A DNA stretch of 63,995 bases, filler included, from Stramenopiles sp. TOSAG23-3 (Eukaryota): NCBI GenBank assembly GCA_900128585.1. It is 4 parts of 4 records of this genome, joined end to end, with 100 filler letters (N's around TTAATTAATTAA, not from the genome) between each part and the next. Parts side by side here need not be neighbours in the genome. Positions count along the whole stretch, not along the records: positions 32,913 to 49,228 come from LT642493.1; 3 more parts are not named here. One strand, written 5' to 3'. The position numbers were made by a program, and so were the translations under genes. Below the pieces are notes generated by a model. That model worked only from the letters and a program-made list of their open reading frames with translations. It made no database searches and had not been told where the DNA came from. Shown here piece by piece: positions 652 through 63,315 of this stretch (within the stretch, counting starts at the first letter, position 1; the number at the start of each line of letters is the position of its first letter).

Positions 652-858
652 GAAGAAGAAAAGAGAGAAGAATAGAAACAAAACACCACGCAGAAAAGAA
701 GATTAGTGAAAAGTATCTCCTACAATTTCATAAATAACGGTACGGCTGTTTTTGCACTTCAAAATTGGTTTGTCCATTTACTCTATCGTTTCATTTTACA
801 AAACTCTTACGAAAAGAATATAAGCCACAACACCACACCAAAAGAACTTTAATCCAGA

Positions 859-984
859 TACCGATTCGGATCGTTCATGGACTCCACTCTAGATTTCAGT
901 TTTCAGTTTTCAGTTCGCAGTACATTCAGTTCGCAGTTCGCAGTACATTAATACTTTAAATAAAACAGCCAATTTTCTTGTTTT
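859..984 (+). repeat. Internally deleted copy of dispersed repeat family A, ending in the terminal module
   Basis: taccgattcggatcgttcatggac matches the reverse complement of ~49590-49616. It is followed by stuttered ttcagttcgcagtacatt and then aacagccaattttcttgtttt. Confidence 0.8.
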
Positions 985-2764: not shown

Positions 2765-2789
2765 AAACAAGAAAATTGGCTGTTATTTA
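2765..2789 (+). repeat. Solo copy of the terminal module
   Basis: aaacaagaaaattggctgttattta. Confidence 0.85.
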
Positions 2790-2986
2790 TTTACTAAAAG
2801 TTGGGTAGCTGCATCCCGGCGGACTTTTTTTATTTTTCTTCTTTTGCTTGAATGATGGCTTCGGGTGGGGTTCAATTGAAAAAAGTAAAACGTGTATACA
2901 TAGTTTGGTTCATAGATAATCTATACTTGTATTGTATTTTAGAGATAGAATAAAGGAACATTTTCAAAGGAAACACTTTGATATTT

Positions 2987-10570: not shown

Positions 10571-10700
10571 GAAGAGCCGGTGGAGGAGAGGGACGACAAG
10601 GCTTCTTATGAAAATTACTCGCGCGCGTATATTTCTGATTTGAAAAAAAAAACGAGAGAGAGAGAGAGAGAAAGAAAGAAAGCAATTATTCAGTGTTTAC

Positions 10701-10731
10701 AACAAGAAAATTGGCTGTTGTTTAAGTAATT
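10701..10731 (+). repeat. Solo copy of the terminal module
   Basis: aacaagaaaattggctgttgtttaagtaatt. Confidence 0.85.
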
Positions 10732-10925
10732 ATCTCAAATTAAAAACAAATAATATGCGTGTGCTGCTATTTAAGATATTTTATTCTAAAAGTTACTTCG
10801 TACGTTTTTTACGACTCTAATTCTTAAGAATTGCACCCTTGGATTTTCTCCCAATTCATCCTTCCTTGTAATTTGTTTTACCCACTTAAGTTCCTTCCTG
10901 ACGACGCGCAGACATTTCTCATTTT

Positions 10926-21676: not shown

Positions 21677-22034
21677 AAAAACAAAAATTGGCTGTTAATT
21701 TTAGTAATTTTAACAATAAAATTGGCTGTTAAAATTTTAAATGAATCAGCTCCTTTTGTCCCACATTAAAGGTGTACGTTCCTTCATGTGCTGCGAACTT
21801 AATTTCTCCTCTTGTGGTTTTGCAAATCACTATACCCTTGTCACCTAGTCTTGGCTATCATGTTCAGAGATGTACTCCATGCGTGGTCCAGATCGGTAGG
21901 TAGGTGAATTTGCTTTAATTGGCAAAAGACTCGTAGTCAACTTCCTCTTCCGATGTCTCACTCGTAAATGGATCAGTCCTTGAGTGGTTTTCCAAGCAGC
22001 GGCGTGAATGTGTTAAAAGTGCTCGTTGTCTGTC
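21677..22034 (-). mobile_element. Family A copy (~290-bp body) preceded by two terminal modules
   Basis: Colinear with 49465-49717 and with the reverse complement of 63030-63270. Confidence 0.8.
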
Positions 22035-30370: not shown

Positions 30371-30970
30371 ATGGTAAAGAACAAGTTGAAAAACAAAAAG
30401 TCGCGCAGGTCTGCGCCGAAGAAGAAGAAAAGGTCAAAGTCGTGGGCTTGGTCTCGCGAGGAGGTTAATTTTCTTGTCAAAACGATGACCGACTATGACA
30501 GGGAACTGCAAACGCTCGAGTCCGCCCAGGAGAAAGTGTTCTTCGACAGCGACGGAACGCCGTGCACGATCTTACAAAAGTACATCGAAAAGATCAGTGA
30601 CAGATACGGCCGCTCAAAGATGGCAGTGGAGAACAAATTTTACAAAATGATCCGACGCAACGAGCACCCTGATACGAGGAAAAAGTACGGCGCTTGGAAA
30701 ACACACGAAGAGGTATACCTGCTGGGCATCGCAAAGGAGTACACCAACCATTTAACGAACATCCAGAGGAGAGGCTATTCGCAGGAACCAATTGTGAATG
30801 CACTCGACGGCACACCCTGCACCATCTTCCAGATGTACATCAGCAAAGTGGCATCGTTCACGAACCGAAGCAAAGTGGCATCGTTCACGAACCGATCGTA
30901 CAAGGCGTGCGAGTCGAAGTTTTACAAAACTTTGGCGAGGAACTCAACAATATCCAAATGCCACATTTGA
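30371..30970 (+). CDS. Two-repeat Myb/SANT-like protein, copy 1; 3' end derived from ankyrin-gene DNA
   Basis: WSREEVNFL...GRSKMAVENKFY and WKTHEEVYLL...NRSYKACESKFY; basic N-terminus; 27-nt internal duplication. Confidence 0.65.
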   Translation: MVKNKLKNKKSRRSAPKKKKRSKSWAWSREEVNFLVKTMTDYDRELQTLESAQEKVFFDSDGTPCTILQKYIEKISDRYGRSKMAVENKFYKMIRRNEHPDTRKKYGAWKTHEEVYLLGIAKEYTNHLTNIQRRGYSQEPIVNALDGTPCTIFQMYISKVASFTNRSKVASFTNRSYKACESKFYKTLARNSTISKCHI

Positions 30971-31318
30971 TTCTAGGGATCAAAGGAAGGAACAGCAATG
31001 ACCAACGGTGCTACGACCAGCTGCGAACCAGCCTGAAACGGAGGAAACAATTGAAAAAGAAAACCAACTCAATAAAAACCAATAGCAGGGACGATTTTGT
31101 CGTTGAGTGCGAAGAACGGAAGAGAACCAAGGAATAGCTAAGTCCAAAACAGTGTTCAGTTGCTGAACAAAATCGAAACCCGCAGGGGTAACTTCATCAT
31201 GCATGCAGATGAAGAAAGAAGAAGACGCAGTTTGCTTTTGAGCGGAGAACCCATTTTTTGAACGGTGAGAGAGAAGAGGAAAGAAGGGTTGACAGTTCAA
31301 ATTTTACGTAGTCGACTA
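30929..31318 (+). pseudogene. Duplicated, internally deleted 3' fragment of the SH3-ankyrin gene
   Basis: Matches 29411-29480 joined directly to ~29645-29937, with stops and indels. Confidence 0.85.
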
Positions 31319-31712
31319 ATAATTACCAAATAATGTATAATGCAGTAACATACAATCTTAAAAGAGCATTCTAAAATTTTAACGTAATATTTTTAATATT
31401 TTTAAATATTTTTTAATGAAGCAAGAAGAAGAAACAACTTTTTTGTCGTTATTTTTTAGTTGTTTTGTTTAAAAAAACAAGTTTATGATTCATGATATCA
31501 AGCTTGATTTCGATCGGAAGAAAACGATTGCACTTATCCATATTTAATTATCCATTATAAATCAATTCTCACAATTATCGAATTAATCAACAATAATAAC
31601 AGTTCTGAACAAATCACCGAATTTAGTTTGCGTAAAGATTCGTAACGTGTTTAGTGAAAATCCGTGAAACCGAAAATCCGTGAAACCCGTTGTGCTGAAA
31701 CTACGATATATC

Positions 31713-32231
31713 ATGGGAAAAAGCAAGTCGAGAAACAAAAAGTCGAAAAGGTCCGCGCCGAAGAAGAAGAAAGCGGCAAAGTCGTGGGCTTGGTCTCGCG
31801 AGGAGGTTGCCTTTCTTACCAAAACGATGACCGACTATGACAGGGAACTGCAAACGCTTGATGCCGCCCAGGAGAAACGATACTTCGACAAAAACGGAAT
31901 GCCGTGCACGGTCTTACAAAAGTACGTCGAAAAGGTCGTGGCCAAATACGGTCGTTCAGAGTTGGCAGTGCAGAACAAATTTTACAAAATGATCCGAAAC
32001 AAAGAGTACCCTGATACGAGGAGAAAGTACGGCGCTTGGAAAGCACTCGAAGAGAGATACCTGCTGACAACCGCAAAGGATTACCATGACCATTTATCAA
32101 GAATCCAGGAGGGAGGCCTTTCGCAGGAAGTAATTGTGAATGCACTCGACGGCACACCCTGCACCATCTTCCAGATGTACATCAGCAAAGTGGCATCGTT
32201 CACGAACCGAAGCAATATAAGCTGCATCTGA
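31713..32231 (+). CDS. Two-repeat Myb/SANT-like protein, copy 2 (second repeat truncated)
   Basis: Clear paralog of 30371..30970. Confidence 0.65.
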   Translation: MGKSKSRNKKSKRSAPKKKKAAKSWAWSREEVAFLTKTMTDYDRELQTLDAAQEKRYFDKNGMPCTVLQKYVEKVVAKYGRSELAVQNKFYKMIRNKEYPDTRRKYGAWKALEERYLLTTAKDYHDHLSRIQEGGLSQEVIVNALDGTPCTIFQMYISKVASFTNRSNISCI

Positions 32232-32556
32232 TTCTAGGGATCAAGGAAGGAGCAGCAATGACCAACGGTGCTACGACCAGCTGCGAACCAGCCTGAAACG
32301 GAGGAAACAATTGAAAAAGAAAGCCAACTCAATAAAAACCAATAGCAGGGACGATTTTGTCGTTGAGTACGAAGAACAGAAGAGAACGAAGGAACAGCTA
32401 AGTCCAAAACAGTTGCTGAACAAAAGCGAAACCCGCAGGGGTAACTTCGTAATGCAGATGAGGAAAAAAGAAGACGCAGTTTGCTTTGCGTAGAAACCTA
32501 TTTGTAACCAGTGCCAGCAAAGGATTGGAGGGAAAATATTACGTAGTCGGTTCATA
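32212..32556 (+). pseudogene. Second duplicated 3' fragment of the SH3-ankyrin gene
   Basis: Shares the internal deletion seen in 30929-31318 and matches 29645-29940. Confidence 0.85.
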
Positions 32557-32574
32557 ATAATCTAAAAACAATAT

Positions 32575-32812
32575 TTCCTTCTTCTTTCTCCTTCTTCTTG
32601 TTCTTCTTCTTCTTTCTTTCTTTCTTCTTTCTTCCTTCTTTCTTCCTTCTTTCTTCTTGTTCTTTCTTCATGTTCTTTCTTCTTCCTCTTCTTTTCTTCA
32701 TCTTTCTTTCTTTCTTCCTTCTTTCTTCTTTCTTATTCCTTCCTTCTTTTCCTTCCTTCTTTCTTCCTTCTTTGTTCCTTCTTTGTTCCTTCTTTGTTCC
32801 GTCTTTGTTCCT
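32575..32812. repeat. CT-rich low-complexity tract at contig end
   Basis: Directly visible. Confidence 0.9.
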
Positions 32813-32912
32813 NNNNNNNNNNNNNNNNNNNNNNNNNNNNNNNNNNNNNNNNNNNNTTAATTAATTAANNNNNNNNNNNNNNNNNNNNNNNNNNNNNNNN
32901 NNNNNNNNNNNN
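32813..32912. other. Artificial contig linker
   Basis: N44-TTAATTAATTAA-N44. Confidence 0.98.
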
Positions 32913-34655
32913 GCCCCGATTCCTGCCAACATGTGGTTGGTGAACGTTTCAGAAAACAGCAACAGGATAGACCAACTTTTCGACCTGCTCTCGGAATTAT
33001 TTTTGAGCGAAGGAGCAAAGGGCGTCCATACCGGCCCCCCTTACCTCAAGGCTGCGAATGCGTTTGCGGCTGCGGTGACGAGTGTAGCGTATTCTCTTAG
33101 CGAGCATGGTGGCCGAATCATCGCCTGCCAAAGCTCGTTGCCAACTGTCGGGGTGGGGAAAATGGATTGCCGAGAAGAGGCAAAATTGTATGGTAGGCAG
33201 GGAGAGGCTGTAATGTGGTTTCCAGACCCCGCCAAGCCTTCGTACAAGCGGCTGGGGAAGTACTGCGCAGAGAAACAAATCTGCGTGGACATAATTTCAA
33301 TGAACAGCAAAAACCACTGCGATGTTGCTACCATGCGCATTGTGCCCGAAAAAACGGGCGGGGAAATGCTCTATTACCCTGAATTTGACCTGGGAAGCCG
33401 GTACTACCAAGATCGCATGCGACAGGATGTCAAGCGATTGCTAACGGCATACGTGGCCCTGGAAGCTACGTTAAAGATCAGGTGCAGCGAAGGCCTTCGC
33501 GTCGTTGCAATTCATGGCCCAGGGGACGCGGACAGAGACCCCTCGCAGGTGAACGTTGCATTGCTCGGGGAGGACCTGTCCTTCTGCGCATCGTTTGAAT
33601 ACACAACCGATTTGGGCGAGGACCAGAAAAATGCTTACCTGCAGGTCTCGTTGCTGCACACTTCCATGAGCGGTCGGCGCACCGTGAGGGTGATGAATCT
33701 GCAGCTTCCGTTGACTTCGCAGCTTAGCAGTACCTTTCGGCATTCGGATATTGATACGGTTTGCAATCTGTTATGCCGGAAGGCGGTTCGAAAGGTGTAC
33801 GAGAATGTCAGAGACTCTTCGTCGCAAATGAAACGGATGATGTCCGGCGTACGCGACCATTTGCTAAGCCGCGTGATAAAAATGTTGCATGCGTACAGGC
33901 GTTACTGCGCAACGGCGTCATCGTCTGGCCAGCTGATCCTGCCGGAAGCCCTCAAGTTTTTGCCGTTGCTAACGTTAGCGTTGAGAAAGAGTGTGTGGTT
34001 GCAATCGAATGAAATCTCCATTACGCCCAATATCCGCGCAGATGAACGCGCCGCGTCCATGTCCTTGTTGCAAAGTGCGTCCCCTGCGCTCTTCATGTCG
34101 ACATTGTACCCGTACTTGTTCTGCTTGCACGAGATGAAGGCTGAACACGGGCTGCCACACAAAGAAACTCCGTCCGGTGAAAGCCGCCCGGATGCCGATG
34201 ATGTTTTCCTCCCGAAACCACAGTATCCATCATCGGAACACTTAACCGAGATGGGCTTGCTGTTGCTGGTAAATGGCCTCGATTTCTATTTTTGGGTGGG
34301 AAGGAAAGTGCTGAGGACAACCCTCCAAGATTTGTTCAATCGAACGTCGCTGCCAAACGATGAAGCAAAAGTGCAGAAAATTTTGTTTCAAAAGCGCGAC
34401 AACATGTTGTCCCGGCGTATATTTGGGGTCATTAATGCCATGAAGCAGAGGATGCGCGTGGACCCCAGTCGCATACGACTGCATGTTGTCAAACAGATGT
34501 CTGGTGTCCGAACCGCGAAAGAACGGAGTACGTACAGCGAAGATAGATTTTTATCATTGTTGATAGAGGACAAATCAAGGCACGGAATGTCGCATGTTGA
34601 AATGCTCTGCCATGTCCATAAGAAGATTCAATTGAAAATGAGCGACTACGATTGA
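32913..34655 (+). CDS. SEC24: COPII coat protein Sec24 (5' truncated)
   Basis: GGRIIACQSSLPTVGVG, DVATM...TGG, KIRCSEGL, RRTVRVMNL, SSSGQLILPEALKFLPL and C-terminal LCHVHKKI. Confidence 0.9.
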   Translation, partial: APIPANMWLVNVSENSNRIDQLFDLLSELFLSEGAKGVHTGPPYLKAANAFAAAVTSVAYSLSEHGGRIIACQSSLPTVGVGKMDCREEAKLYGRQGEAVMWFPDPAKPSYKRLGKYCAEKQICVDIISMNSKNHCDVATMRIVPEKTGGEMLYYPEFDLGSRYYQDRMRQDVKRLLTAYVALEATLKIRCSEGLRVVAIHGPGDADRDPSQVNVALLGEDLSFCASFEYTTDLGEDQKNAYLQVSLLHTSMSGRRTVRVMNLQLPLTSQLSSTFRHSDIDTVCNLLCRKAVRKVYENVRDSSSQMKRMMSGVRDHLLSRVIKMLHAYRRYCATASSSGQLILPEALKFLPLLTLALRKSVWLQSNEISITPNIRADERAASMSLLQSASPALFMSTLYPYLFCLHEMKAEHGLPHKETPSGESRPDADDVFLPKPQYPSSEHLTEMGLLLLVNGLDFYFWVGRKVLRTTLQDLFNRTSLPNDEAKVQKILFQKRDNMLSRRIFGVINAMKQRMRVDPSRIRLHVVKQMSGVRTAKERSTYSEDRFLSLLIEDKSRHGMSHVEMLCHVHKKIQLKMSDYD

Positions 34656-34734
34656 GACCCAATATAATCATATTCATATCTACTACACTTAAAACAATTA
34701 AATAATAAAACCGAAATAATGTTGTTTTAAAAAA

Positions 34735-34840
34735 AGCAAGAAAATTGGCTGTTATTTAAGTAATTAAATTTAGCTTCCTCATACCCTAATTCTAACTTGG
34801 GGATGTTGTTTTTAAAAACAAAAATTGGATGTTATTTTGT
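34735..34840 (+). repeat. Terminal module (ATACCCT variant) plus a degenerate second copy
   Basis: caagaaaattggctgttatttaagtaattaaatttagcttcctcataccctaattctaacttgg, the reverse complement of 49339-49403. Confidence 0.88.
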
Positions 34841-34952
34841 TTTTAAGATTCTTGTTCTTATAAAGGATACTCTCTGAGATAAATTCCTTATGCATAACAG
34901 TAAATGATAGTGTGCGCCGTTTTTAATTTTACGTAGACACCCCTCGAACAGC

Positions 34953-36395
34953 TCAAGGCGTAGGTCTTTTATACACGATGAATTTCCAGCACATCTGGGC
35001 CCCTAAATTCTGTGAAACCACCGAGCGTTCGTTGACAAGGTCAAAAACCACTTTAATATTGCGCGAAAATTTATTTACGACATCAAAAAACGACTTTCTG
35101 TCTTTTGCATAAATCTTTATGGTCGTCAAATTGCTGCATGCGTACAGAAACTCGTATATTGATTTCAATCGTATGGATGGTCTGCCGTCTTCGAAATCAA
35201 TGATATCGTGTGCAATTTGTGTATTGTCGATAACGACGTGCTCTATAACCCTTGAATGTTCAAACAAACAGTCTGGCAATCGTTTTGTATTGTACCGTCT
35301 TAAGTCGATGCCACTGGTAAGGTAGGCCCTTCTCAGGAGACTGCCTGTGTGGTACTGATCTTTGTACTGCGGTTGGTCGAACCTGTCGCGCTTGCTTTCT
35401 GCCAAATGTTTTTTTGCTTCTGCTAGCGCTCGTCTTTCTTCTTTCTCTTTCCTAAGTTTCATGGTTAAAGACTTCATGTGTTTGCTTCTATACTTTAAAA
35501 GGGTGCGGACAGATTTCGCGCCTTCGCCAATGGCCAGTTTGTCGGGACCCTTTATTTTATTTCGTTCCAAACTCAACTCCGTAAGCCTGTCCAAAGGCTC
35601 TAATTGCAACGGTATTCGGTCGAGCTGGTTCCCGTCCAAGAACAGTTTTTCCAGGTTTTTTAGAAATGAAATTTCGGATGGACAAAACGATAAATTGTTG
35701 TTCGACAAAGACAGAAATCTTAAGTTCTTTAGCCTCCCAATCTCAAATTCGGGAGGAACTTCGAGCATATTGTTGTCCAGCCACAGTTTTTCTAAGGACA
35801 CCATATGTGAGAGTGGCTCAGGCCAGACTCGCAACGAATTGTAGGACAAACAAAGCGCTTTCAAGTGAACAAATTCTGAAAATTGCTTTGGGATTTTTGA
35901 CAAAAGAAGCCTTCTGAGCGACAAGACGGTGAGGTTTTTCAGTCTAAATGTATGCTCTAAAATCGATCTAGGAATAATCATGTCGGTAGAGACGCGGTGA
36001 CTTTTTGAAATGTACAATTTTTCCAAGCCGCTTGCTGACTCAGCCTTCCTATCAATTGCTTCTTTCAACCGCTCGGAATCTTTCTCCGTCAATGAAACAC
36101 GTAGAAGATTTCTTTGTTTCTCGTCTGTGTTCATATTTTTGAGGCGTTCTTTATAATCCATTGAAAAGCGGACGGTCCTTCTCACACGTACTTTCTTCAA
36201 GGACGAAACAGGTGGCGGAGATGTCTCGGGAAAATTATCCACAGTATTTTCTTTTGCGTTCTCTTTTTCGTCTTCGGCAGCTTTATCTTTACTTGTCATT
36301 TCTTTTGAAGTTCTTTGCACGCTATCACCAAAGTTCATTGTGCCAATATTCACCAATCCAGTACCCTCCGCTAAGTCGAGTTCTTTTTCCTCCAT
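34953..36395 (-). CDS. Leucine-rich repeat protein
   Basis: About six LxxLxLxxNxL repeats (e.g. LEKLWLDNNML, LRFLSLSNNNL, LEKLFLDGNQL). Confidence 0.85.
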   Translation of the reverse strand: MEEKELDLAEGTGLVNIGTMNFGDSVQRTSKEMTSKDKAAEDEKENAKENTVDNFPETSPPPVSSLKKVRVRRTVRFSMDYKERLKNMNTDEKQRNLLRVSLTEKDSERLKEAIDRKAESASGLEKLYISKSHRVSTDMIIPRSILEHTFRLKNLTVLSLRRLLLSKIPKQFSEFVHLKALCLSYNSLRVWPEPLSHMVSLEKLWLDNNMLEVPPEFEIGRLKNLRFLSLSNNNLSFCPSEISFLKNLEKLFLDGNQLDRIPLQLEPLDRLTELSLERNKIKGPDKLAIGEGAKSVRTLLKYRSKHMKSLTMKLRKEKEERRALAEAKKHLAESKRDRFDQPQYKDQYHTGSLLRRAYLTSGIDLRRYNTKRLPDCLFEHSRVIEHVVIDNTQIAHDIIDFEDGRPSIRLKSIYEFLYACSNLTTIKIYAKDRKSFFDVVNKFSRNIKVVFDLVNERSVVSQNLGAQMCWKFIVYKRPTP

Positions 36396-37416
36396 TGTTG
36401 TTCCAACGGTATAAAGAAATTGTTTCACAATCAGGCACTATTGCAATCTGTGTCTATTCTTTATTTACTTATTATCTATCTATTTTCCTATCTCTCTTTA
36501 ATTTATACTTTCAAATAGAAACCCTTTGGTTGATTTCTCCAAAATAAATATAGCAACAAGAATAACGTCTCTTACATCGCAAGAAGAAATATAATTATTT
36601 ATCAATAATAATAATAATAATAAATAATTATAAAAAAAAATAATATAATAATTTTAAAAGAATAATTAATATTATAATAAAAAAATACGTACTACTGTTC
36701 GTACACCACTGCTGTACACCAACAACCAACAAAAGAATAAATTATTATTAATAAAAAATAGTTCGTCTATTATTAGCCTAATTAAATGTATAATTTAAAA
36801 TATGAATTATTTAACCCATCTCATTCATCATCATGTGTTGGTTTTGTTATTCGGCGTGGGAAGCGTTTCGCACATTTCTTTTAAACCAGTGCTGTATGTA
36901 TGTTATTTATTTTTCTAATTGCTTTCTTTTCTTGATAATAAACCTAACAATGCTGTCTTATATTCTTTTCAATATTAGATGCAGCTATTGGATAGTATGA
37001 TACCAATTTTTTTGGTTGTTTGTTCTTCTTCCTGCTACTATTTATATGAACATAAAATAATAATAAAATTAATTTATTGTTGAGATCATCCCTCTCCTCT
37101 TATTATTTCGATATATTGCACAGCGCAGAGGAAGAATAAGAGAAGACAAAAAAAAAATTTAAATAAATACCAAGTAATTAATACGACGACGGTAGCGTAG
37201 TAGAAAGTAAAAAAAATAATATCCCCTTGCCTTTCTTTGACGATTTGGCATTCACACATGCATTTTCAAGACGTCAAAATATTTTCAAACTGGAACAGTA
37301 GCTAAAACAAAAGAGTAACTAAGACGACGAATTTAGAAACATATATTGACTTGCATTTCATAATCGCATATTTGAACACAGACGACGTCAAGTAATTGAA
37401 AACAAACTGTATCAAA

Positions 37417-39024
37417 ATGATGCTTGCAGAAAGAAACCTGAATGTTGTAAAGAAGGTTACGTTTCAAACCCCGACAAAAGCAGTGGCTCCGGCAACGACC
37501 ATTGAGTCGGCGGGTACTGCAAAAGAAAACAATAAAGTAGTAAACAAAAACGAAACGGCTTCGGCTTCACCAATCCCAGGAATACAGTACGATGCGTTTG
37601 GGTTTGTTTCTAACCCGCCGCACGTCCTCAACGGATGCACTGAATCGGAAGAGTCCACTTTGAAGTGGGACAAATATATTGAAAACCATGGTTTAGACTG
37701 GGTTGGAGCTCGATCGAAAGAGTTGGAACAGCTTGTAATGACCTGCAACATTCCAAAGAAACACAGGCCAACAATATGGATGAAATGGTCTGGAGCCGAG
37801 GAGATGAAGGAAGAGAAAGGGGACTCGTACTATTCCAGCCTCCAGAAGCAATCACCAGAGGAAAAGGTGATGAAACAGATTGAACTGGACATACCAAGAA
37901 CTTGTCCGCAGCACAAGCACTTTCTGCACGAGACGTCGGCTGGAAGGGAGCAACTGCGCCATGTTTTGTACGCTTATGCCGTGCACAACAAGGATCTTGG
38001 GTACTTGCAGTCAATGAACTTTATTGCGGCTCAGCTCTTGCTTGTTACGGAGAACGAGGAACAGACGTTTTGGATTTTGACCGCGATTGTAGAACGTATG
38101 CTCGGGGAAGGGTTTTATACTGGTAGATTAGGAAAGTTGTTAAAGAGCATAGACACGTTTTCAGCATTAGTCGCCGAAAAACTACCTCAGGTGTCTCACC
38201 CGAATTGGTTCCTGTGCATGTACTTCAACAGTCTAAAAAGCGAGATTACTACGCGTGCGTGGGACATGGTCTTCTTCCATGCCTCGGATACTACCGAGGC
38301 CCTAGCTTGCATCGGTTTGGCTCTGGTCGACATTGCCAGGGACGGCATTCTCGGAGCTAAACACGCCCCGGGATGTGCCCGTAGTTTGCAAACCATGGCG
38401 GACCAGGTCATAGATGGCAATGACTTCCTTAGAAACGCTTTTGCAGAAAAATGGAGCGTGAACCAAATTCGTCGTGCAATGAGGAGTCAAACCATCCAGA
38501 AAGCTGTCCAAGAGGTCAGAAGCAAGGTTGTCGCCCCGCGCACGGCGTACAAACACAAACGGTCTCGAAGTGCTGGGGACGCTGATATTTTTTCATCCAT
38601 AAATAAAAACGGGAATGTTTTCGGGAAGAAGGGGGCACAAACTGCCATGAAATCAAAGCGACGGCGGCTGAATCGCCCCATGGGCCAGAGTTGCGATGAT
38701 GCCAGCATTAACAAGAGGATACATTTTGGCACACCGTCCAAAGCGCGGAATACAAATAACACTGATGTTGGATTTTCGCCATTCGTTGCGCTCAAAAAAT
38801 GGTTTACGCCGTCGAAGCGCCCCGCCGCGCAGTCGTCTAAAAAATCTTCGAGGCGAAGCGCGGTGAAAAGCAACACTCCGCTACCGGGCATCACATTCCA
38901 TGCGCACAACCTACAGAAAATAAATGATTGCTGTGGAAGTCCCATGGGTATGGAAATGCAGCCGACAAAAGCTGGATCCCAACCTTCCAGCCTACTTCGT
39001 GGTGGTGGTACGGAGAAGTTATGA
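37417..39024 (+). CDS. TBC-domain Rab GTPase-activating protein
   Basis: IPKKHRPTIW, R finger QIELDIPRT, Q finger YLQSMNFI, WFL and RAWD. Confidence 0.9.
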   Translation: MMLAERNLNVVKKVTFQTPTKAVAPATTIESAGTAKENNKVVNKNETASASPIPGIQYDAFGFVSNPPHVLNGCTESEESTLKWDKYIENHGLDWVGARSKELEQLVMTCNIPKKHRPTIWMKWSGAEEMKEEKGDSYYSSLQKQSPEEKVMKQIELDIPRTCPQHKHFLHETSAGREQLRHVLYAYAVHNKDLGYLQSMNFIAAQLLLVTENEEQTFWILTAIVERMLGEGFYTGRLGKLLKSIDTFSALVAEKLPQVSHPNWFLCMYFNSLKSEITTRAWDMVFFHASDTTEALACIGLALVDIARDGILGAKHAPGCARSLQTMADQVIDGNDFLRNAFAEKWSVNQIRRAMRSQTIQKAVQEVRSKVVAPRTAYKHKRSRSAGDADIFSSINKNGNVFGKKGAQTAMKSKRRRLNRPMGQSCDDASINKRIHFGTPSKARNTNNTDVGFSPFVALKKWFTPSKRPAAQSSKKSSRRSAVKSNTPLPGITFHAHNLQKINDCCGSPMGMEMQPTKAGSQPSSLLRGGGTEKL

Positions 39025-39031
39025 GAATCAC

Positions 39032-40113
39032 AAAACAAGAAAATTGGCTGTTATTTAAGAAGTAATTAAAATTTAGCTTTCTCATGAACCGCGAAAATGA
39101 ATCAGAGTTTAATTAAAAATAAAAAAACAAAAAATTGGCTGTTACTTAAATAATCAAGTTAGGATTAGGGTATGAGGAAGCTAAATTTAATTACTTATAA
39201 TTCAATAACAACAGCCAATTTTCTTGTAAGTATGATATCATAGTCGAAGTACTTAAAATTTACCGTCTTTATACTGCAAACTTATCCCTGCTCTTGAGAT
39301 TTTACTACTTACTTTAGTAGTACTAACGAAAAACAAAGAAAATTGGCTGTTATTTAAGTAATTAAACAATATACCACCCTCTTGTCCCTTGTCATTTAGT
39401 CTTGTTTTTCATTCTCATGTGTAATCCATGCATGATCCGAATCGGTAAACTTATGTCGATTTGCGTCGATGTCAAAGAGTTTATTAAATATGTAACAGCC
39501 AATTTTCTTGTTTTATTAAAAGAAATAATGTTCTTATCTTAGGTACACTTACATCTGTATGTGTATACGACCACGAAACGATCAAACTCAATACCGATCA
39601 TTATTTCATTGAGCAGTACGTACTTTTAAGACCAATCAATTGGAATCTTGACCAGAACTTGGGGAGGATCTGCAATAGGAGGAGGTATTGTTCTTGAACT
39701 GACACCTTCTTTTTTCTTTAATTTTAATTACTATAAAATAACAGCCAATTTTTCTTGTTTTTATCTTAAACAAGAAAATTGGCTGTTATTTAAGTATGAT
39801 GATATAATATGTTACTTAAATAACGGCCAATTTTCTTGTTTTTCAATTAAAATTAATGTGCTGCGAACTGAAATCTAGATTTAGACATTCTAGGTTTACA
39901 TTCCTTCATGAACCTGCGAAAATAATAATTCTCTTATCATATCTTATATAAGAATTACGTAAGAGTCGAGAAATTACGAAGTAGTAACCCCTGTATGATA
40001 TTTACTTTAAGAACTTAGAAACTTTTTGAGTAAAATCTCGTAAACTCTGAAATACCAGTGTTACCGAATTTTTTGTTTTTATTACTTAAATAACTCAGCC
40101 AATTTTTTGTTTT
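39032..40113. mobile_element. Cluster of nine terminal modules in both orientations, with family A (39248-39480) and family B (39538-39720) bodies
   Basis: Forward modules at 39032, 39124, 39331 and 39768; reverse modules ending at 39227, 39514, 39762, 39841 and 40113. Confidence 0.8.
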
Positions 40114-40171
40114 TATTACTCATATGCGTAACACGCAAAAAAAACATTGAAAGCACTGCGTTCCGGCGCAG

Positions 40172-41011
40172 TTAAGCCTGCTGCAGCGAGTCCAAAAAAT
40201 GATCTACTTCGCTCGACCCGGGCGTAGCTTTTTCCGTTGGTATTTGCGGTTGACTTTTGGTGGAGATGGAATCTTGCGAGAGTGGCGGATCTTTGTTTGG
40301 GGAAGCATCTTTTTTTCGTCGTTTGCTGTCTTGCTGCCGCCACGGTCTTAGGTCTTTGCGTAAGTTTTCGCTAAGTGGCCTTACGTGCAAATAGTTGCAC
40401 TGGTGCCCACGTCGACAAAGGCCATTCTTATCGAACTGTTTACAACGCCCTTCGCACCAGTGCCTGCTTATCCCTAAAACTGGAGAGAATTCCGCCACTA
40501 TAACACTGCCATCATAATACCGCCCATGCATCGCCTCTTTCAGCTTAATCGCATCCTCCTCGTCAGCGTACGTAACGTACACGTGGCCCCGCAAGTGTTC
40601 TACTTCGTTTTCCAGTACGCAGACGGACTGAAGGTTTCCACTCTTTGTGCACTCTTCGTAGACTTCCATGAAGAAATCTTCAAAATCTTCTATGGTTTTG
40701 CCTGGAGTATCAAGCCACATGTGCCTCAGCAAGACGGTGCGACTGAACGCAGGGCAATGGTGTTGGCGCGAACAAGATTCCCCGTGCCGGCATGCCCCCA
40801 TTTTGAAATAAAACGGACAGTTTTTCCGGTCAGATTCCGATCGCTGAATACTTGCCAAATACCGCGCCCCGCCCCCCTCTCTCCGACCCCTATACATGTT
40901 CTGCCGAGGCTGGCTCCTTCCCCTTGACCTTGACAGTGACCGCTCGTAGTCACTACTCCTATCCTCTCTCCGACGCACCTGATCACCTACAACTGTGTCT
41001 TGATACGACAT
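40172..41011 (-). CDS. U2AF small subunit (U2AF35) family protein, CCCH-UHM-CCCH
   Basis: YLASI...CPFYFKMGACRHGESCSRQH, FEDFF, HLRGHVYV, AEFSPV and CRRGHQCNYLH. Confidence 0.88.
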   Translation of the reverse strand: MSYQDTVVGDQVRRREDRSSDYERSLSRSRGRSQPRQNMYRGRREGGGARYLASIQRSESDRKNCPFYFKMGACRHGESCSRQHHCPAFSRTVLLRHMWLDTPGKTIEDFEDFFMEVYEECTKSGNLQSVCVLENEVEHLRGHVYVTYADEEDAIKLKEAMHGRYYDGSVIVAEFSPVLGISRHWCEGRCKQFDKNGLCRRGHQCNYLHVRPLSENLRKDLRPWRQQDSKRRKKDASPNKDPPLSQDSISTKSQPQIPTEKATPGSSEVDHFLDSLQQA

Positions 41012-41736
41012 ATATAAAAATATATTGTGAAACAATCCCAAAGGTCTCCGTATGCGTCTGCGTTGGGTCGGACGTACTCCCAATAAACGAAATTATCAGC
41101 GTCTTTACGTTAACAAATACGAGGCAGAAGAACAACTGTAGAAAATTCGTTGTAAATCTGCACATAAATATTTTCTCTGGAAAATTCTACATTCTGCAAT
41201 TCTTTCTGTGAAAACGTCTTTCATGAACTCTCTAATGATAATATAAATATTTGTCCCTCGTGAATGAATGCACACAATAATAATATTATTAATTTTTTAT
41301 TATTATTGATATTATTATTACTATTAGTAATAGTAGTAGGATATGGATTATGGATGGGGTCGGTCTTCGTCTTCTTCTTCGTTGGTTGTTGATGTTGTTT
41401 TTTCTGGTGTGTGTGTGTTGTGTGGTTAGGGTTAGGTCCAGGGTATTATACATTCCTCGTAATAAGTTTTTATTAAAAAAATAAAAATATCATTCTTCTT
41501 CTTCTTATCGCACAATTTATAAATATCCATCATCATCCTCCACAACACAACAACTTTTTTTTTCAGTTAATTATTAATTAATTATTCAAATCATTAATTC
41601 ATGATTTTAAATTTTTTTTGGAGGTGTTGTTATAGATGAGCCATCAATAAAACTTGTATGCATATTTGCCTTTGCCTGGTTAATCATTTACTGACGATCC
41701 GCCAAGCGGGTTATTAACCATCTTTCGTCTGTACTT

Positions 41737-42624
41737 ATGGCCACGACGTCCCCCCGTGCGATCTTAGAGCGCCTATGTCGAAAAGAACTAGATGTCTTAA
41801 GGGCGGTCAAAGTGGAAGAAGCCAACGTCACACGCCGTGCAAAGAAAATAGAAAACTTGATGAACCATGCTGAGTTAAACTTTCCCACCATATACGGGGT
41901 TCTCCCTGAAAAAATGAAAAGGTCCGGGTTCAAAACGGAGAAAGATCTGCGTTTGTACAACGCTGTCAAAGCAAGAATAGACCGGGGACTTCCTGAATTT
42001 GAAAGGCTTTACGAAGAATTCCAGGACAACTACAGATCAAATGGGGAGAAGAAAGCAGCATTTCTAGAACATTTTAACTCGAGCAACCGGAAAAAACAGG
42101 CCATGGGGGAAAACATGTACAGAACAAGAGAAAGCCAAGCGCACGCGATTGAATTTCTCCGGCTTTTGCGAGCGGAAAGGGACAAGTGTGAACCGCGGTC
42201 GTCGGCCTCGAAACGCGCAACGTATCGCACGGAAGCATTGGGTGTTCAGCCGCATTTAAACGACAACTTCCGTATTCACATGAAATTGATGGAATCTCTG
42301 AATTTTTGCTCCTTGCTTGATATAAATTCGACGGATTTTCCGTCCTATGGAACGGGGGCTAAGGTGCAGCAGACGGAAGTGGAAGCCATGCTGTTCGAAC
42401 TGTTCCATAATTTACGACAGCAAGGGTCCATCGCAATTGCCCAACACGTCAAAAATGCCATGGACACATTTTCCAACCTCGAATGGTCTCCAGCGTCCAC
42501 GGGCATATTTTTACGATTAACCCGTGCATTCCACTATGATTTGAGAGCCCCTGACGACACCTTGTCGGTGTACCGCAGAGCCCGGTTCCAGCGGGGTGAA
42601 TGCATTTTTGTTGAATGTGAATAA
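41737..42624 (+). CDS. Hypothetical protein, 295 aa
   Basis: ATG-initiated ORF that fills a GC-richer block between AT-rich spacers. No family recognised. Confidence 0.6.
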   Translation: MATTSPRAILERLCRKELDVLRAVKVEEANVTRRAKKIENLMNHAELNFPTIYGVLPEKMKRSGFKTEKDLRLYNAVKARIDRGLPEFERLYEEFQDNYRSNGEKKAAFLEHFNSSNRKKQAMGENMYRTRESQAHAIEFLRLLRAERDKCEPRSSASKRATYRTEALGVQPHLNDNFRIHMKLMESLNFCSLLDINSTDFPSYGTGAKVQQTEVEAMLFELFHNLRQQGSIAIAQHVKNAMDTFSNLEWSPASTGIFLRLTRAFHYDLRAPDDTLSVYRRARFQRGECIFVECE

Positions 42625-42797
42625 ACACGTAGACGCGTTGTGTCTTATCTCCCAAAATGTAAAGTTTAATGAAAATGAAATATCTTAAATTCTTATTATC
42701 AGTTAGCATAAATTAATAAATCTTAAGAGTGTTTTAATCATTTTTTTTTGAAACCGCGTACGAAGTACAAAATACGAAGTAATTTTTCAGGTTTTCG

Positions 42798-42913
42798 TAA
42801 CTTAAATAGCAGCCAAATTTTTGTTTTTATATGTAAACCTAGAATGTCTAAATCTAGATTTCAGTTCGCAGTACATTAATTTTAATTACTTAAATAACAG
42901 CCAATTTTCTTGT
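42798..42913 (+). repeat. Two terminal modules (ctagatttcagttcgcagtacatt variant)
   Basis: 42835-42885 is the reverse complement of 39845-39900, and the stretch ends in aacagccaattttcttgt. Confidence 0.85.
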
Positions 42914-42992
42914 AGCTACGTAATACACGCGCCCAAAAACAACACTGCAGAAAATACACTTCGTAATACCCAAATGGATCAGCTTCTTCCTC

Positions 42993-44024
42993 TCACAGCC
43001 TGCTCTGCTGTGAAGTTGCGAACAAACGTTGCTTCATGGCATTACTGAAATCGTCCAGGAACGCGTGGCAGTCCGCGGTTCCTGCGACACCTTCAAGCAT
43101 CCAAAAAATGTGCATCCCAGGGTAAGTTTTCACAACAGCATCATCGCTGTTGTTCGCAGATCTTTGCAGGGCTTTTCCGTACGCGACACCTTCAGAAATT
43201 AAAGGGTCGTGACTCGCTACGGCAATCCAGGCCGGGGGCAAATTGTCGAAAGATGACGCTTTGATAGGCGACACCCGCCAGTCGTCCCATATCTCTGGTG
43301 CGTTGCTGGAGGTGTAGTTGTCACGAAACTCTAGCATTGCTTCGGACGTCAAGAAATAATCGCTTCCAAATGCTGCATGGCTTTTTGTTGACATGTTCGA
43401 CAAGTCAAATGCACCGCAAAGCGGCGCCTGTACCTTTATGTTTCTTGCGTAGATACTATCACGTGCCATCAATGAACAAACCGCAGCAATGTTACCACCC
43501 GCACTGTCACCCGCCAGTGCAATACTTTCATTGTCGACTAAATGGTGCAACGTACTTGAACTCCTGCCAGACGCTACCCATTCGAACACGTCGTAGAAAT
43601 CTTCTATTGCCGCCGGAAATTTGTACTCTGGGCTAAGCCGGTAATCCACAGACACACACACAGCACCGATTTTGCGGCAACAAGTTTGCAGGAAATTGTG
43701 ATAATCAAGGGGCGTTCCCAACGTCCAACCCCCCCCGTGCGCGTACAACATGATGGGAAGCCTGCCTTCGTGGGTTTGAGGAAAATACGCGATGCAAGGA
43801 ATGTCTCGTTTGTTACTGCGAGACGGAACAGCGATCCGCTCCGTTCGAACATTGGCCTTTACATCGGCAGATAATTTCAAACCGAAATTTTTCAGTAAAC
43901 CAGAGTACCCCGCCCGCTTCTCTTCTAAAGTTACCACGGGGGCTCTTTTCTTTGGGGCGTGATACATTTTCAAAAAACGCTTCGTTGCCGCGTTCAACGA
44001 ATACTTGTACTTCCCGGTCGCCAT
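42993..44024 (-). CDS. Hormone-sensitive-lipase family esterase (alpha/beta hydrolase 3) with C-terminal SRL
   Basis: HGGGW, DYRLSPE, GDSAGG, HDPL and GMH motifs; ends QQSRL*. Confidence 0.9.
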   Translation of the reverse strand: MATGKYKYSLNAATKRFLKMYHAPKKRAPVVTLEEKRAGYSGLLKNFGLKLSADVKANVRTERIAVPSRSNKRDIPCIAYFPQTHEGRLPIMLYAHGGGWTLGTPLDYHNFLQTCCRKIGAVCVSVDYRLSPEYKFPAAIEDFYDVFEWVASGRSSSTLHHLVDNESIALAGDSAGGNIAAVCSLMARDSIYARNIKVQAPLCGAFDLSNMSTKSHAAFGSDYFLTSEAMLEFRDNYTSSNAPEIWDDWRVSPIKASSFDNLPPAWIAVASHDPLISEGVAYGKALQRSANNSDDAVVKTYPGMHIFWMLEGVAGTADCHAFLDDFSNAMKQRLFATSQQSRL

Positions 44025-44424
44025 CGACTGTTTAAGTCTTTTGCCCACACTGCTGAAACGATCTTTGCCTTATAACATATTATTGAGGCGTAAAAGGGCT
44101 GGTAAATAGCTTCTTCTTTCAACACTATAAAGTGCGCGTCCGCAATAATAATATACTGACAAATCGTTTTGAACTTGTGAGACTTGCCAATAATGCTGGA
44201 AGAAGAGGAGAAATTATTACTACTCCTCGTATATATTCGATCGACGACGAATTATTATAATAATATTATTAGTCTATAATAATTTTTTTATTATTATTAT
44301 TATATATTATTATTTACTATATTTTTTCGATATTAGATGACGACTACTACTAATAATTATAATATTACGAAGTACGATATATAAGAAACAAGCACAACAA
44401 CAAGATAGAAAAAGAAGAACTTCA

Positions 44425-49328: not shown

Positions 49329-49340
49329 AATTACAGAACC

Positions 49341-49930
49341 AAGTTAGGATTAGGGTACGACGAAGCTAAATTTAATTACTTAAATAACAGCCAATTTTCT
49401 TGTTTAAGATATCATATAATTTTTTTAAAGTAATTAAAATTTATCTTCTTCATATACCGCGAAAGTGAATCTGCTCCTTTTGTCCACTACAGGTTTACGT
49501 TCCTTCATATACTGCGAACTTATCTCTGCTCCAGAGATTTTACTAATCAATATCCCTTGTCACTTGGTCGTGAGTATCATTCCCGTGTGTACTCCATGCA
49601 TGCTCCGAATCGGTAGATGGATTTGCGCCGATGGCATGTCTCACTCGTAAATGAATCAGTCCTTGTGCGGTTCTCCAAGCAGCGGCGTGATTGTTTGAAA
49701 GGTGCTCGTTGTCTGTCTTGTGAACCAGCCAGGGAATCGTCATTTGTGAGTTGAGGTGTAGGGAGAGGGTCGTTTGGGTAGATGTGCGTAATTGGCATTT
49801 GTGGGTTCTGTTGCAATGGTGAAGATTCGGTGTGCAGTGCTAATGGTTGTGGTTCTTCGGAGGGCTGTTGGTATCTCATCCTGCTGGCGATACTATGGTC
49901 CCCTTCCTCTTGATGATTGCATTGAGGATT
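49341..49930 (-). mobile_element. Terminal module (49341-49405) next to a ~500-bp family A copy on the minus strand
   Basis: 49428-49930 aligns with the reverse complement of 62830-63290. Confidence 0.82.
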
Positions 49931-50248
49931 GTACTTCTGTGTCGTCATAATATTAAAACAAAATTCTTTTTCTTAAAGCAGATATCGCTTCCAGCGCTTT
50001 ACATGATTTGTTTCCTGTGCTGCGTAATTTGGTTTCACAGAAATCTCACCCCGCGCTGCGCAGGCAATGTTCCCTGGACTAGGATAGGGTAATGCTCGAC
50101 GGAGGCCGGACTAGAGGACTGTACTTCACTAAATCCACCCCAAAAACGATTTGAAGTGGAACCCAAGTTTCACCACATTAGGGAAAACAGAGGGGCAAAT
50201 CCGCGCGGCGCATTCGCCCTGTTTTGTTAAGCTTCAAATAAATCTTTT

Positions 50249-55934: not shown

Positions 55935-56764
55935 ATGTGAGAGACCAGGTGAGAACATACGAAATACGCCCCGAAGTAGAAAACCAAGGATAATCTTCGC
56001 CGATTTTGAAATAATATAAACAAAAAATTGGCTATTATTAAGAAAAAAATGGCTGTTATTTTAAGTAATTAAAATTCATCTTCTTCATATACTGCGAAGT
56101 TCATTAAGAAGATAAATTTTAATTAATATGGCATACATGCTTAATTACTTAAAATAAATAACAGCCATTATTTGTTTTTAAAGTAAAATTTTACATTACA
56201 ACCACAGTTTAAATACTCTAAGGTACATTAAAAACATTAATTATAATTAAATACAACAAGTACAAATGACCATTTAAGTGACAAGGATATATGATTACTA
56301 TAATCACACCAGTAGAGTTCAGTTCGCAGTACGTAAATTACTTAAATAACAGCCATAATTTTGTTTTTAAATACAAAAAATAATTGGCTGTTATTTAAAA
56401 CAGAATATATAGTATGTTTTAAAATAACAGACAATTTTTCGTTTTAAAATAAAATTTCGGACTTGGGAGAGACATACGAATATGTCCTGGAAATCGCTGA
56501 CCGGCCTAGCCGATTAGGATTCTCAGAAGGTACACTTACATCTGTATGTGTATACGAACAGGAAACGATCAAACTCAATACCGATCATTATTTCATTGAG
56601 CAATTTATGCCGCTGTGTACTTTGAAGACCAATCAATTGGGATCTTGGCCAGAACTTGGGGAGGATCTGCAATAGGAGGAGATATTGATTCTTGAATTGA
56701 CACCTTCTTTTTTCTTTTTATACATATTTTACCTACATAAATAACCGCCAGTTTTTTGTTTTTT
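55935..56764. mobile_element. Cluster of seven terminal modules with family A (56270-56368) and family B (56468-56720) bodies
   Basis: 56528-56718 is near-identical to 39541-39718; modules occur in both orientations. Confidence 0.78.
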
Positions 56765-56867
56765 AATTATATTTTCGTAGCTGACAGAAAATGTTTTACG
56801 TACTATCATGATACGCATTTTGTTTTTTCGTATTGTTAAGATCCAGAAAAAATATCCTCCCGCGGTG

Positions 56868-62100: not shown

Positions 62101-62824
62101 GTTTTCACCAGTTAGAAAGAGAAAAAAATAGTCCCCAGGAGACTGGTGGCAGTTCCTCATCGGAAGAATAATTTAGCCCATCAACATCACCCGACGTATG
62201 TATAGCACAACGTAAGAATACCCCTGACACCCAGGATATTCGCTCCCGCTTGGATAGCCCCGGCTATACAAAAACCAATATCAGCCACTGTTCAAGCCGC
62301 AGCGAGTTGCACCGAGGATAAGGAACTGATTATACAAACGGTAATATCGTCCGTGCAGAGGATGCACTGCCTAGTATGTACTATTTTTCAAACACGCCTA
62401 GGGGTGAACCGGTTGACTAAGGTAAAAGTGGTTTCGCGGATGCCCCTTTGCCATCTGAACGTAATTGGGGTGCCAGGAGGGTAGCATCACCCCGACTGCT
62501 CTAAGAGTAAGTAACGTTGGGAACAATGTCAGGTCAATGGTGAATAGAAGAACGATTATTAATTTTCAATAGATGTTCACAAAAGCAAAAAGATAAAAGA
62601 AAAGAAACAACGAGAAAAAAAAAGCGAAAGTAATAGAAACTCGAGACGGAAGAAGAAAAGAAAATTGAGACGGAAAAAATAATAACCTGAGTGTGCTTTA
62701 CAATCAAAAACAATAATTGAAAACATTTACTTGTAATTTAGTACCTCAATACAATCCAGTAGTGAGCAATCCAGTAATGCCGCGACCCTAATTATTGGTG
62801 TCACCCTCGAACAACGGCACAGAC

Positions 62825-63315
62825 GTACAATTATCAATGCAATCGTCAGAGGAAGGGGACCTGAGCATCGCCAGCAGGACGAGATACCAACTAGCACGCC
62901 AAAGAACCACAACCACAGCAGCACTGCACACCGAATCTTCACCATCGCAACAGAACCCACAAACGCCGATTACGCACACCGACCCAAACGACCCTCTTCC
63001 GACACCTCAATTCACAAATGACATTTCCCTGACAACGAGCACCCTTAAAACATCCACGCCGCTGCTTGCAAAATCACAAAGGACTGATTCATTCACGAGC
63101 GAGACATCGGATGAGGAAGTTGACTACGGGTCTTTTGACACCGACACAAACCGACATACTGATTAGGTTCATGCATGGAGTACATATGAGAATGATAGTC
63201 CAGACTAAGTGACAAGAGTATATTTTTTTAGTAAAATCTCAGGAGCAGAGATAAGTTCGCATTACATGAAGACGATAAATTTTAACTACTTAAATGACAG
63301 ACAATTTTTGGTTTT
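62825..63315 (+). mobile_element. Longest family A copy: Ser/Thr-rich open frame to 63166, ~150-nt tail, degenerate terminal module
   Basis: Homologous to 49428-49930, 21741-22034 and 39248-39480. Confidence 0.8.

Follow-up and report, generated by a model that had tools for sequence, protein, structure and literature searches.

What is the short module that recurs behind gene ends in Stramenopiles sp. TOSAG23-3, and does it follow the strand of the gene before it? The question arises at 39024..40172 of the window (the whole stretch of 63,995 nucleotides analysed, composed of four contigs with linkers of N-TTAATTAATTAA-N between them), a convergent gap with a RabGAP-TBC domain host gene on its left (37417..39024, + strand; ORF, PF00566 at E 5e-41) and a U2AF35-like host gene on its right (40172..41011, - strand; two CCCH fingers and an RRM by domain search). 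In order across this gap, the modules have the signs + + - + - - + - -. The initial annotation proposed that the module reads AAACAAG on the mRNA-like strand just after the stop codon, and the distances and orientations given there for the window genes agree with ORF calls and PWM module positions. The first module is forward after the stops of the TBC (+8), EF-hand/Cys-rich (+44) and Sec24 (+78) genes, the gene ending at 10570 (+129) and DUF389 (+415), and reverse after those of the U2AF35-like (58), esterase (77) and MCM5 (105) genes; named matches of the host MCM5 include brown algae, labyrinthulids and oomycetes. For ADH, the module lies at +265 if the stop is near 2500 with a frame change at about 2370, and at +389 by the ORF caller. 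HPRT is the exception that had been recognized: the first module is reverse, 304 from the stop, and the subfamily B copy after this gene (850..983, + strand, 90% to L187) directs the element tail away from it. The genome (28.4 Mb) is compact, with 68% coding, and holds 1036 forward and 1022 reverse copies of the module core AAAATTGGCTGTTA; a reversed control has 0 copies, and therefore the module is real.

First, a non-LTR retrotransposon of the restriction-like endonuclease (RLE) type has a constant 3' terminus that ends in T, and the module is the reverse complement of this terminus; the T-rich end described initially is the true 3' end of this element. In the related metagenome contig L135, a 1,748-aa RT and endonuclease frame, open at the 5' edge of the contig, is followed by a 3' UTR of about 115 nt ending in the module. 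The frame has the RT motifs RPIAIGE, DAKNAFNS, GTQQGDP and FADD and, toward its C-terminus, a Cys/His finger at 1286-1311, PHN at 1318, E at 1349 and QAD at 1382 with an AD...D endonuclease motif; the pattern C-x-C..C-x8-H-x3-C-x8-PHN-x28-E-x32-QAD is close to REL patterns in passages of PMC12857005. Judged from its sequence, L135 appears to have the single-ORF layout of the RLE type, with the RT followed by the finger and a PD-(D/E)xK-like endonuclease motif. L135 itself has no Pfam RT match and no direct PDB match, and the RT call is based on motifs and on one step via homologues: the RT region matches P0157, which has Pfam RVT_1, at E 5e-49 (35% identity over 90%), and a profile of these sequences matches structures of R2 (E 3e-15; 9nl3, 9dou and 8gh6 are the best PDB matches) and L1 ORF2 (E 1e-13). 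P0002 gave 265 matches, mostly short fragments, against the 50% representatives. A PF00078 search of the own genome returned 8 matches, none an RT of the element family, which were read as 3 Ty3/gypsy-like and 5 DIRS-like; contigs C3947, C4090 and C2821 may carry longer RT-bearing copies. By motif the element appears CRE-like. As in CRE1/2, SLACS, CZAR, Cnl1, MoTeR and FoTeR, the Cys/His finger and the endonuclease stand C-terminal to the RT and many copies are truncated, and the AD of the MoTeR/FoTeR RAD is also in the L135 motif. The differences are that the last acidic residue of L135, in the next D-V motif, lies some 57 aa beyond AD rather than 12-14 (the relative P0156 has QPD and FFDVH at the same places), that L135 has long insertions and a Ser/Asp-rich C-terminal tail, and that the element has a T-rich end. 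SLACS and CRE1 end in poly(A).

Second, the gap behind the TBC gene is filled with pieces of such elements, and window fragments are 78-99% identical to element 3' ends. The gap begins with a truncated 3' end of about 70 nt (39032..39103, - strand, 79% to the L131 3' UTR), whose PWM module at 39033-39060 reads AAACAAG on the + strand, and with a short stub (39117..39160, - strand, module 39124-39151). A subfamily A 3' end follows (39146..39229, + strand, module 39202-39229), which corresponds to the last 75 nt or so of the L135 element at 83%, and then a piece from inside the subfamily X 3' UTR that has no module itself (39267..39307, - strand, 93% to L131). At 39330..39476 (- strand), a module at 39332-39359 and filler precede a subfamily X fragment at 39386-39476 containing the ORF end of the element (97% and 81% matches). 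Beyond a stub at 39480..39514 (+ strand, module 39486-39513), a family D copy of about 220 nt (39541..39762, + strand, 85% to window 56441-56765) ends in the module at 39732-39759; extension of family D copies to an RT was attempted, and no link was obtained. Two head-to-head stubs with tails outward (39768..39842, modules 39768-39795 and 39814-39841) are followed by a 3'-UTR fragment without terminal module (39846..39910, - strand, 91% to L131), which has a 98% inverted match to 42831-42887. The last stub (40077..40113, + strand) has a degenerate module at 40086-40113, 58 nt from the U2AF35-like stop, and is spanned by DNA contigs of runs X2, X3 and X4 from 39890 onward. Like the stubs of this gap, several other copies in the window were identified by PWM and element matches: two stubs after Sec24 in the convergent gap with the LRR gene (34733..34850, - strand), two before the esterase stop in a convergent gap (42792..42915, + strand), one minimal stub after the gene ending at 10570 (10700..10743, - strand), two modules with a subfamily X body of about 300 nt after the EF-hand gene in a tandem gap (21677..22033, - strand), and a second large mixed cluster of 7 modules between DUF389 and MCM5 (56017..56765). 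The minimal stub after ADH (2765..2792, - strand) was found by PWM. A contig start at 49329..49944 holds a subfamily A stub (49329-49405, sense +, 99% to the L135 end) and a subfamily X copy of 520 nt (49422-49944, sense -, 80% to L131), and the longest copy of the window, about 570 nt (62744..63315, + strand, 82% to L131, tblastn 62%), comprises a decayed C-terminal tail of the element ORF, the 3' UTR and a module at 63288-63315.

Third, the early claim that these are inserted elements is supported by target duplications, by one empty site and by contiguity with a retrotransposon ORF. Among 42 listed loci that match the ORF end, 7 were too short, and in 28 of the 35 testable the module lies at most 260 nt away in element orientation. 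The shared bodies measure 28-602 nt (median 99), with variable 5' truncation and a constant 3' end; the T-run after TTG is 4-5 in 73/125 ends, and the following base is A in 81%. Of 49 copies, 8 have target duplications of at least 11 nt (null mean 0.34, max 2) and 41 have none of that length; the duplicated sites start T(1-3)AA, and the flanks are otherwise unrelated. Target duplications are also stated for CRE in passages of PMC3636483. The suggested look for empty-site alleles yielded one pair, in which G000 C40:7839-7850 is empty where L183 has 335 nt inserted, with a duplication of 11-12 nt; the tail of this polymorphic insertion faces a minus-strand stop 66 nt away. No empty-site allele was found among the 15 joints listed (163 more) for four runs against window 33500-44100. 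The idea of priming at A-rich sequence stood as far as target-primed insertion is concerned, but not for a long A-rich primer, since the T(1-3)AA site gives 1-3 A. The same data bear on the possibility that the module is a terminal inverted repeat of a MITE or Kolobok-like DNA transposon with a TTAA flank, so that clusters run forward-first and reverse-last. Flanks are often TTAAAAAC, and +...- is the commonest cluster pattern outside the window (9/23); however, the copies have no constant interior sequence or length, bodies continue into the retrotransposon ORF, and the duplications are 11-16 nt rather than TTAA. Tail-out pairs sharing a duplication of at least 10 nt number 2/68 (null mean 0.66, max 3), and with the L135 frame ending in the module and the duplication lengths, these counts led us to reject the terminal repeat as hardly credible. 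Single-event tail-out composites as the cause of forward-reverse clusters were not above null overall and were also rejected; there is one good composite in C35, with a 12-nt duplication around a +...- pair.

Fourth, the apparent strand rule is mostly a matter of the geometry of asymmetric copies, and orientation is close to random. By the criterion of the initial annotation, 40 independent contigs gave 32 sense to 19 antisense (p=0.09), and the window 9:2. After the gene calls had been improved, the modules in the convergent gaps of C1-C40 stood at 39:24 raw and 36:27 with element bodies masked. In all data outside the window, the proposed tabulation did return a raw skew of 62:31 (p=0.002), inflated because the added loci were picked for long bodies, but this skew was lost on masking (51:42, p=0.41), which follows BLAST limits and can over- or under-run; single copies there went from 16:7 raw to 11:12 masked. 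Under a true rule, terminators would be nicked by the endonuclease on the mRNA-like (non-template) strand, which an R-loop, for example, could expose, so that most copies would lie tail-to-tail with the nearest gene. Such a rule would be consistent with the raw skew, with the tandem gaps (10:6) and cluster outer ends (29:17, p=0.10) outside the window, and with the tail of the polymorphic insertion facing the stop. The masked window also leans this way (16:5, p=0.027), in clustered, non-independent copies from the region where the rule was noticed. However, the masked and single-copy counts speak against such a rule, and in simulations a true bias of 0.7 gave 72-75% raw, whereas randomly oriented insertions gave 57-62% 'sense' from geometry alone, as in the unbiased sample (62%). 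The body extends to just one side of the module, and as a result a convergent-gap module is pushed toward the gene with which it is tail-to-tail, and nested insertions make clusters tend to be forward-first and reverse-last even with random orientation; the near-palindromic T(1-3)AA gives no strand preference from the target site. As a general statement, the strand rule is therefore weak and, as a true nicking rule, improbable; masked plus tandem counts give a 95% interval of 0.46-0.65 for the sense share, and a mild true bias of up to about 65% may exist. The rule is not a finding to carry forward, and caution is needed wherever orientation is measured from one end of an asymmetric insert. 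It is highly probable that truncated tails of an RLE non-LTR retrotransposon, in near-random orientation, explain the modules.

Fifth, location is the robust signal of these copies, and the tie to gene 3' ends proposed at the outset was upheld. Outside the window (741 kb), 63 modules were located in convergent, 12 in tandem and 2 in divergent gaps and 0 in ORFs, with ORF-based gene calls in which some genes were missed or added between the first and improved sets. In C1-C40, 30/94 convergent, 11/93 tandem and 2/77 divergent gaps carry modules (chi-square p 6e-7), at an AT content of 0.65-0.67 in all three classes. Selection only, with random insertion in AT-rich DNA and purging of promoter and ORF copies, is an unlikely though serious explanation. 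The compactness of the genome favors it, as does the fact that convergent gaps alone are without a promoter, and contigs of other samples also cover the copies at 34734, 40086 and 42800, which suggests that many copies are old and filtered. Nevertheless, other repeated segments of at least 60 nt, several of them low-complexity and some convergent ones belonging to module elements, number 15 in divergent, 10 in tandem and 13 in convergent gaps, so that divergent gaps tolerate inserts of 160-330 nt; moreover, the bias persists among near-perfect modules (18 convergent, 7 tandem, 0 divergent), and the depletion reaches about 60-fold per kb even though a stub measures just 30-100 nt. A signal that serves the host in 3' UTRs or in termination, whether original or co-opted in the manner of Leishmania SIDERs, would fit thousands of copies nearly all behind genes and a module within the last 20 codons or so of a called ORF in 2 related loci. 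This alternative, of which the initial annotation had offered a strand-specific form, is very improbable: 64/94 convergent and 82/93 tandem gaps are without a module, both orientations follow stops in tandem gaps, decayed copies are common, one site is polymorphic, the module is contiguous with a retrotransposon ORF, and folding of the 3' UTR is no better than that of shuffled sequences (z 0.64).

Herein, we propose that the module is the last 35 nt or so of the RNA of a retrotransposon family with an RT and a C-terminal restriction-like endonuclease. The element RNA would end in ...CAGCCAATTTTCTTG plus 3-5 U, without poly(A), and the endonuclease would nick AT-rich DNA at T(1-3)AA-type sites, where the 3'-OH of the nick would prime reverse transcription at the RNA end, with AAAACAAG... 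as the first cDNA bases. Synthesis would usually stop early and leave a stub of 28-600 nt, in some cases with a target duplication of 11-16 nt; copies would collect just behind stop codons, mainly between convergent genes, and nest in older copies, and with near-random orientation the body on one side of the module would yield the apparent rule. Location might reflect targeting together with selection. Steering to RNA polymerase II termination zones, with gene 3' ends as a safe haven and possibly a mild preference for nicking the mRNA-like strand, is a tentative proposal to which we give slightly less than an even chance; candidate guides are, for example, a termination factor, an R-loop or positive supercoiling between convergent genes.

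R2 likewise uses target-primed reverse transcription without need of a poly(A) tail; however, it is specific for 28S rDNA, whereas the module family is not sequence-specific beyond T(1-3)AA. The repeat-specific insertion typical of CRE, though not universal there, was not seen, the flanks being unrelated beyond T(1-3)AA and the copies dispersed at thousands of sites instead of in spliced-leader or telomere repeats. Leishmania SIDER1/2 are also short truncated retroposons present in thousands, mostly in 3' UTRs (passages of PMC2323293), but SIDERs are extinct and ingi-related with a demonstrated role in mRNA decay, whereas module copies are polymorphic, RLE-type and keep the 3' end. The L1-like Zorro3 of Candida albicans, also a non-LTR element in a compact genome, keeps out of ORFs and has a gap-class bias, which is the opposite one, with 16/30 new insertions between divergent genes and 1 convergent, at poly-A (passages of PMC1965478). 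In the main texts of the open-access literature, we found no paper on a non-LTR element favoring convergent gene ends, nor on the module family. For this uncultured marine stramenopile, the polymorphic stubs are ready population markers. RLE retrotransposons are mostly known as repeated-target specialists (passages of PMC4640811), and a dispersed, U-ending RLE family found nearly exclusively downstream of protein-coding genes would represent a new safe-haven strategy in compact genomes and might lead to a retrotransposon protein able to sense transcription termination. If steering to termination zones is true, it would be a targeting class apart from rDNA, spliced-leader, tRNA-gene, telomere and promoter targeting.

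Several findings on the repeated module have been made in the present study. First, the module is the constant end of a few common continuations differing in length, and these belong to a real element family. A profile based on 76 seed sites (no matches to reversed sequence at score 16) detected 26 modules in the window, including nine in the convergent gap 39024-40172 (order + + - + - - + - -), and its positions agreed with the module-to-stop distances of the initial annotation. The genome contains 2,058 copies of the 14-nt core (control, 0); in 40 contigs outside the window (C1-C40), 84 profile matches were found versus 50 exact core matches listed there, a ratio suggesting approximately 3,400 modules by extrapolation. 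In three runs, module bins were sequenced at hundreds of times the single-copy depth. The longest copy in the window (62750-63250) had 52 matches in the genome and led to a decayed frame with a Cys/His finger in contig C2323, which matched the intact metagenome proteins P0001 and P0002; P0002 as query retrieved 80 loci. The related metagenome contig L135 carries a 1,748-aa frame, open at the 5' end, that contains RT motifs and, towards the C terminus, a finger and an endonuclease motif; it is followed by approximately 115 nt of 3' UTR ending ...TAACAGCCAATTTTCTTGTTTT. A module lies at most 260 nt away, in element orientation, in 28 of 35 testable ORF-end loci (42 listed, seven too short). Because the module closes the 3' UTR behind this type of ORF, the AAACAAG... 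reading of the initial annotation corresponds to the first-strand cDNA sense, and the T-rich end is the element's own 3' end. The element is predicted to encode an RT on the basis of the motifs, of P0157, a homologue of the element RT (E 5e-49) with Pfam RVT_1, and of a five-sequence RT profile matching R2 and L1 structures; L135 alone gave no RT match in Pfam and PDB searches. The L135-type ORF family includes at least three variants of the 3' UTR (A, B and X); family D has the same terminus, but a link to an RT was not found.

Second, the copies are truncated and have been mobile. Body lengths range from 28 to 602 nt (median 99; 110 modules), and among 125 anchored ends, 73 have four or five T after TTG and 81% have A following the T-run. 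Flanking repeats of at least 11 nt were observed in 8 of 49 copies with both flanks and a body of at least 60 nt (shuffled mean 0.34, maximum 2); several target duplications start with T(1-3)AA, and the repeat in one of the eight copies, L181, resembles a second, tandem copy of the element end and not a target duplication. An empty allele, a check proposed in the initial annotation, was identified: locus L183 contains a 335-nt copy flanked by a duplication of 11-12 nt at a site empty in the genome itself (C40:7839-7850; 99% identity over 5.4 kb). This polymorphic insertion is located in a gap between convergent genes; a minus-strand stop is 66 nt away, and a decayed module of greater age is approximately 90 nt away. 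Loci L187 and L188 are 99.8% identical over the 6.3 kb that run up to a module near 6360 and wholly different beyond, which could stem from a rearrangement between elements, from insertion of a large segment or from a chimeric assembly. At L176:2942 and L169:3885, modules lie within the final ~20 codons of called host ORFs and may supply C-terminal residues; similarly, P0004 is a DUF229 protein joined to an element fragment. By analogy with established TPRT, the endonuclease would nick AT-rich DNA at a T(1-3)AA site, the 3'-OH at the nick would pair with 1-3 U of the element RNA end, and first-strand cDNA would begin AAAACAAG. The mosaics would then be built up by synthesis that stops early, by fillers, by template jumping and by nested insertion. 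A composite in C35, with both tails outward and a common 12-nt duplication, may have arisen in a single event with priming from both DNA ends; such pairs numbered 2 of 68, not above chance overall.

Third, the orientation rule proposed in the initial annotation, whereby the nearest module after a stop codon reads forward ('sense') on the mRNA-like strand, is weak or absent and mostly geometric. The same measure that gave 9:2 sense:antisense in the window gave 32:19 in C1-C40 (p=0.09), and it has a built-in bias, since the body on one side places a module nearer to its tail-to-tail partner gene, and insertions that subsequently enter bodies displace the outermost module in the same direction. 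With bodies masked, the ratio in convergent gaps of C1-C40 was 36:27 (35:30 under looser masking). Across convergent gaps in everything analysed outside the window it was 51:42 (p=0.41), and single copies among these gave 11:12; the window itself gave 16:5. Tandem gaps, where the geometric bias is absent, gave 10:6, and cluster outer ends 29:17. Random orientation, simulated with the actual sizes of gaps, clusters and bodies, produced 57-62% raw 'sense' and 55-59% at outer ends, and a simulated true bias of 0.7 produced 72-75% raw; the values in the unbiased sample were 62% and 64%. The masked and tandem counts place the sense fraction at 0.46-0.65 (95% interval), and a mild true strand bias of insertion may exist.

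The source assembly comprises 28.4 Mb in 7,088 contigs. The window genes are mostly single long ORFs, and Pfam confirmed the names initially given; the named relatives of MCM5 are mostly stramenopiles, and the region is found in marine metagenomes. Artificial linkers (N44-TTAATTAATTAA-N44) occupy 16362-16461, 32813-32912 and 49229-49328, joining four contigs; genes on opposite sides are not neighbours. Within 2330-2500, the ADH gene changes frame near 2370, with the C-terminal ~40 aa in another frame and a stop near 2500, through a small deletion or an assembly error; decayed 84-nt LRR-type tandem repeats (2965-3240) lie in the convergent gap behind it. At 29637-32493, a ~1.3-kb unit is repeated in tandem in three diverged copies, covering the C-terminal part of the SH3-ankyrin gene plus two short ORFs, and 59108-62700, ~3.6 kb with broken coding-like stretches and no called gene, is possibly another decayed element. 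Long TTCT/TCT microsatellite tracts (7327-7677, 13079-13524, 32574-32806) are located away from modules, either at the ends of contigs or in gaps on the promoter side of genes. Other interspersed repeats, 200-370 nt long and module-free, were found at C16:9070-9445, C16:13920-14238, C19:7646-7941, C22:5185-5491, C13:1460-1710 and C12:10734-10951; several of them are in divergent gaps, and some are inverted on themselves (MITE-like). Directly behind a module in C2323, a different element fragment begins (L131:6677-8238), with a frame that resembles the endonuclease end, runs on into a weakly Ulp1-like stretch (Pfam C48, E 0.09) and, as judged by motif, into OTU-like protease stretches. By their motifs, L123-L130 include Ty3/gypsy-like pol frames (1,300-1,550 aa, open) and DIRS-like elements with overlapping frames in the genome, and a ~700-nt DNA-transposon-like insertion with terminal inverted repeats (L207:625-1327) is absent from the L208 assembly.

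The element works like an R2-group LINE, sharing the R2-group order of RT, finger and endonuclease motif in one frame. In a comparison by motifs, its endonuclease spacing resembles the CRE clade (patterns from PMC12857005), as do its target duplications (PMC3636483), but it differs in an atypical spacing of the last catalytic residue and in lacking a specific repeat target. A 3' location is common to the element and SIDERs in the portion of PMC2323293 concerned, Zorro3 has the opposite gap bias (PMC1965478, in part), and gene ends are not among the known RLE targets in excerpts of PMC4640811. Searches of the open-access literature found no description of the family or its gene-end niche.

Finally, the preference of the copies for gene 3' ends is real and strong. 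In C1-C40 (741 kb, 315 called genes, 84 modules), none lay in ORFs. Convergent gaps contained 63 modules (1.53/kb; present in 30 of 94 gaps), tandem gaps 12 (0.18/kb; 11 of 93) and divergent gaps two (0.02/kb; 2 of 77), with seven outside classed gaps; the AT content was the same in all three classes. Of the 80 related loci, 69 were retained after removal of 11 duplicates or orthologues; in these, 24 modules were convergent, seven tandem and none divergent, the remainder lying outside classed gaps apart from four in called ORFs (two within the last ~20 codons, two likely ORF miscalls). Within tandem gaps, 15 of 22 copies lay in the stop-side half. Selection alone could have left the copies behind genes, but we consider this the less likely explanation. 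Divergent gaps also contain other repeated segments (15, against 13 in convergent and 10 in tandem gaps), an observation that speaks against selection being sufficient, although the control is small and includes low-complexity pieces. We consider it probable that targeting, with added selection, placed the copies behind genes.
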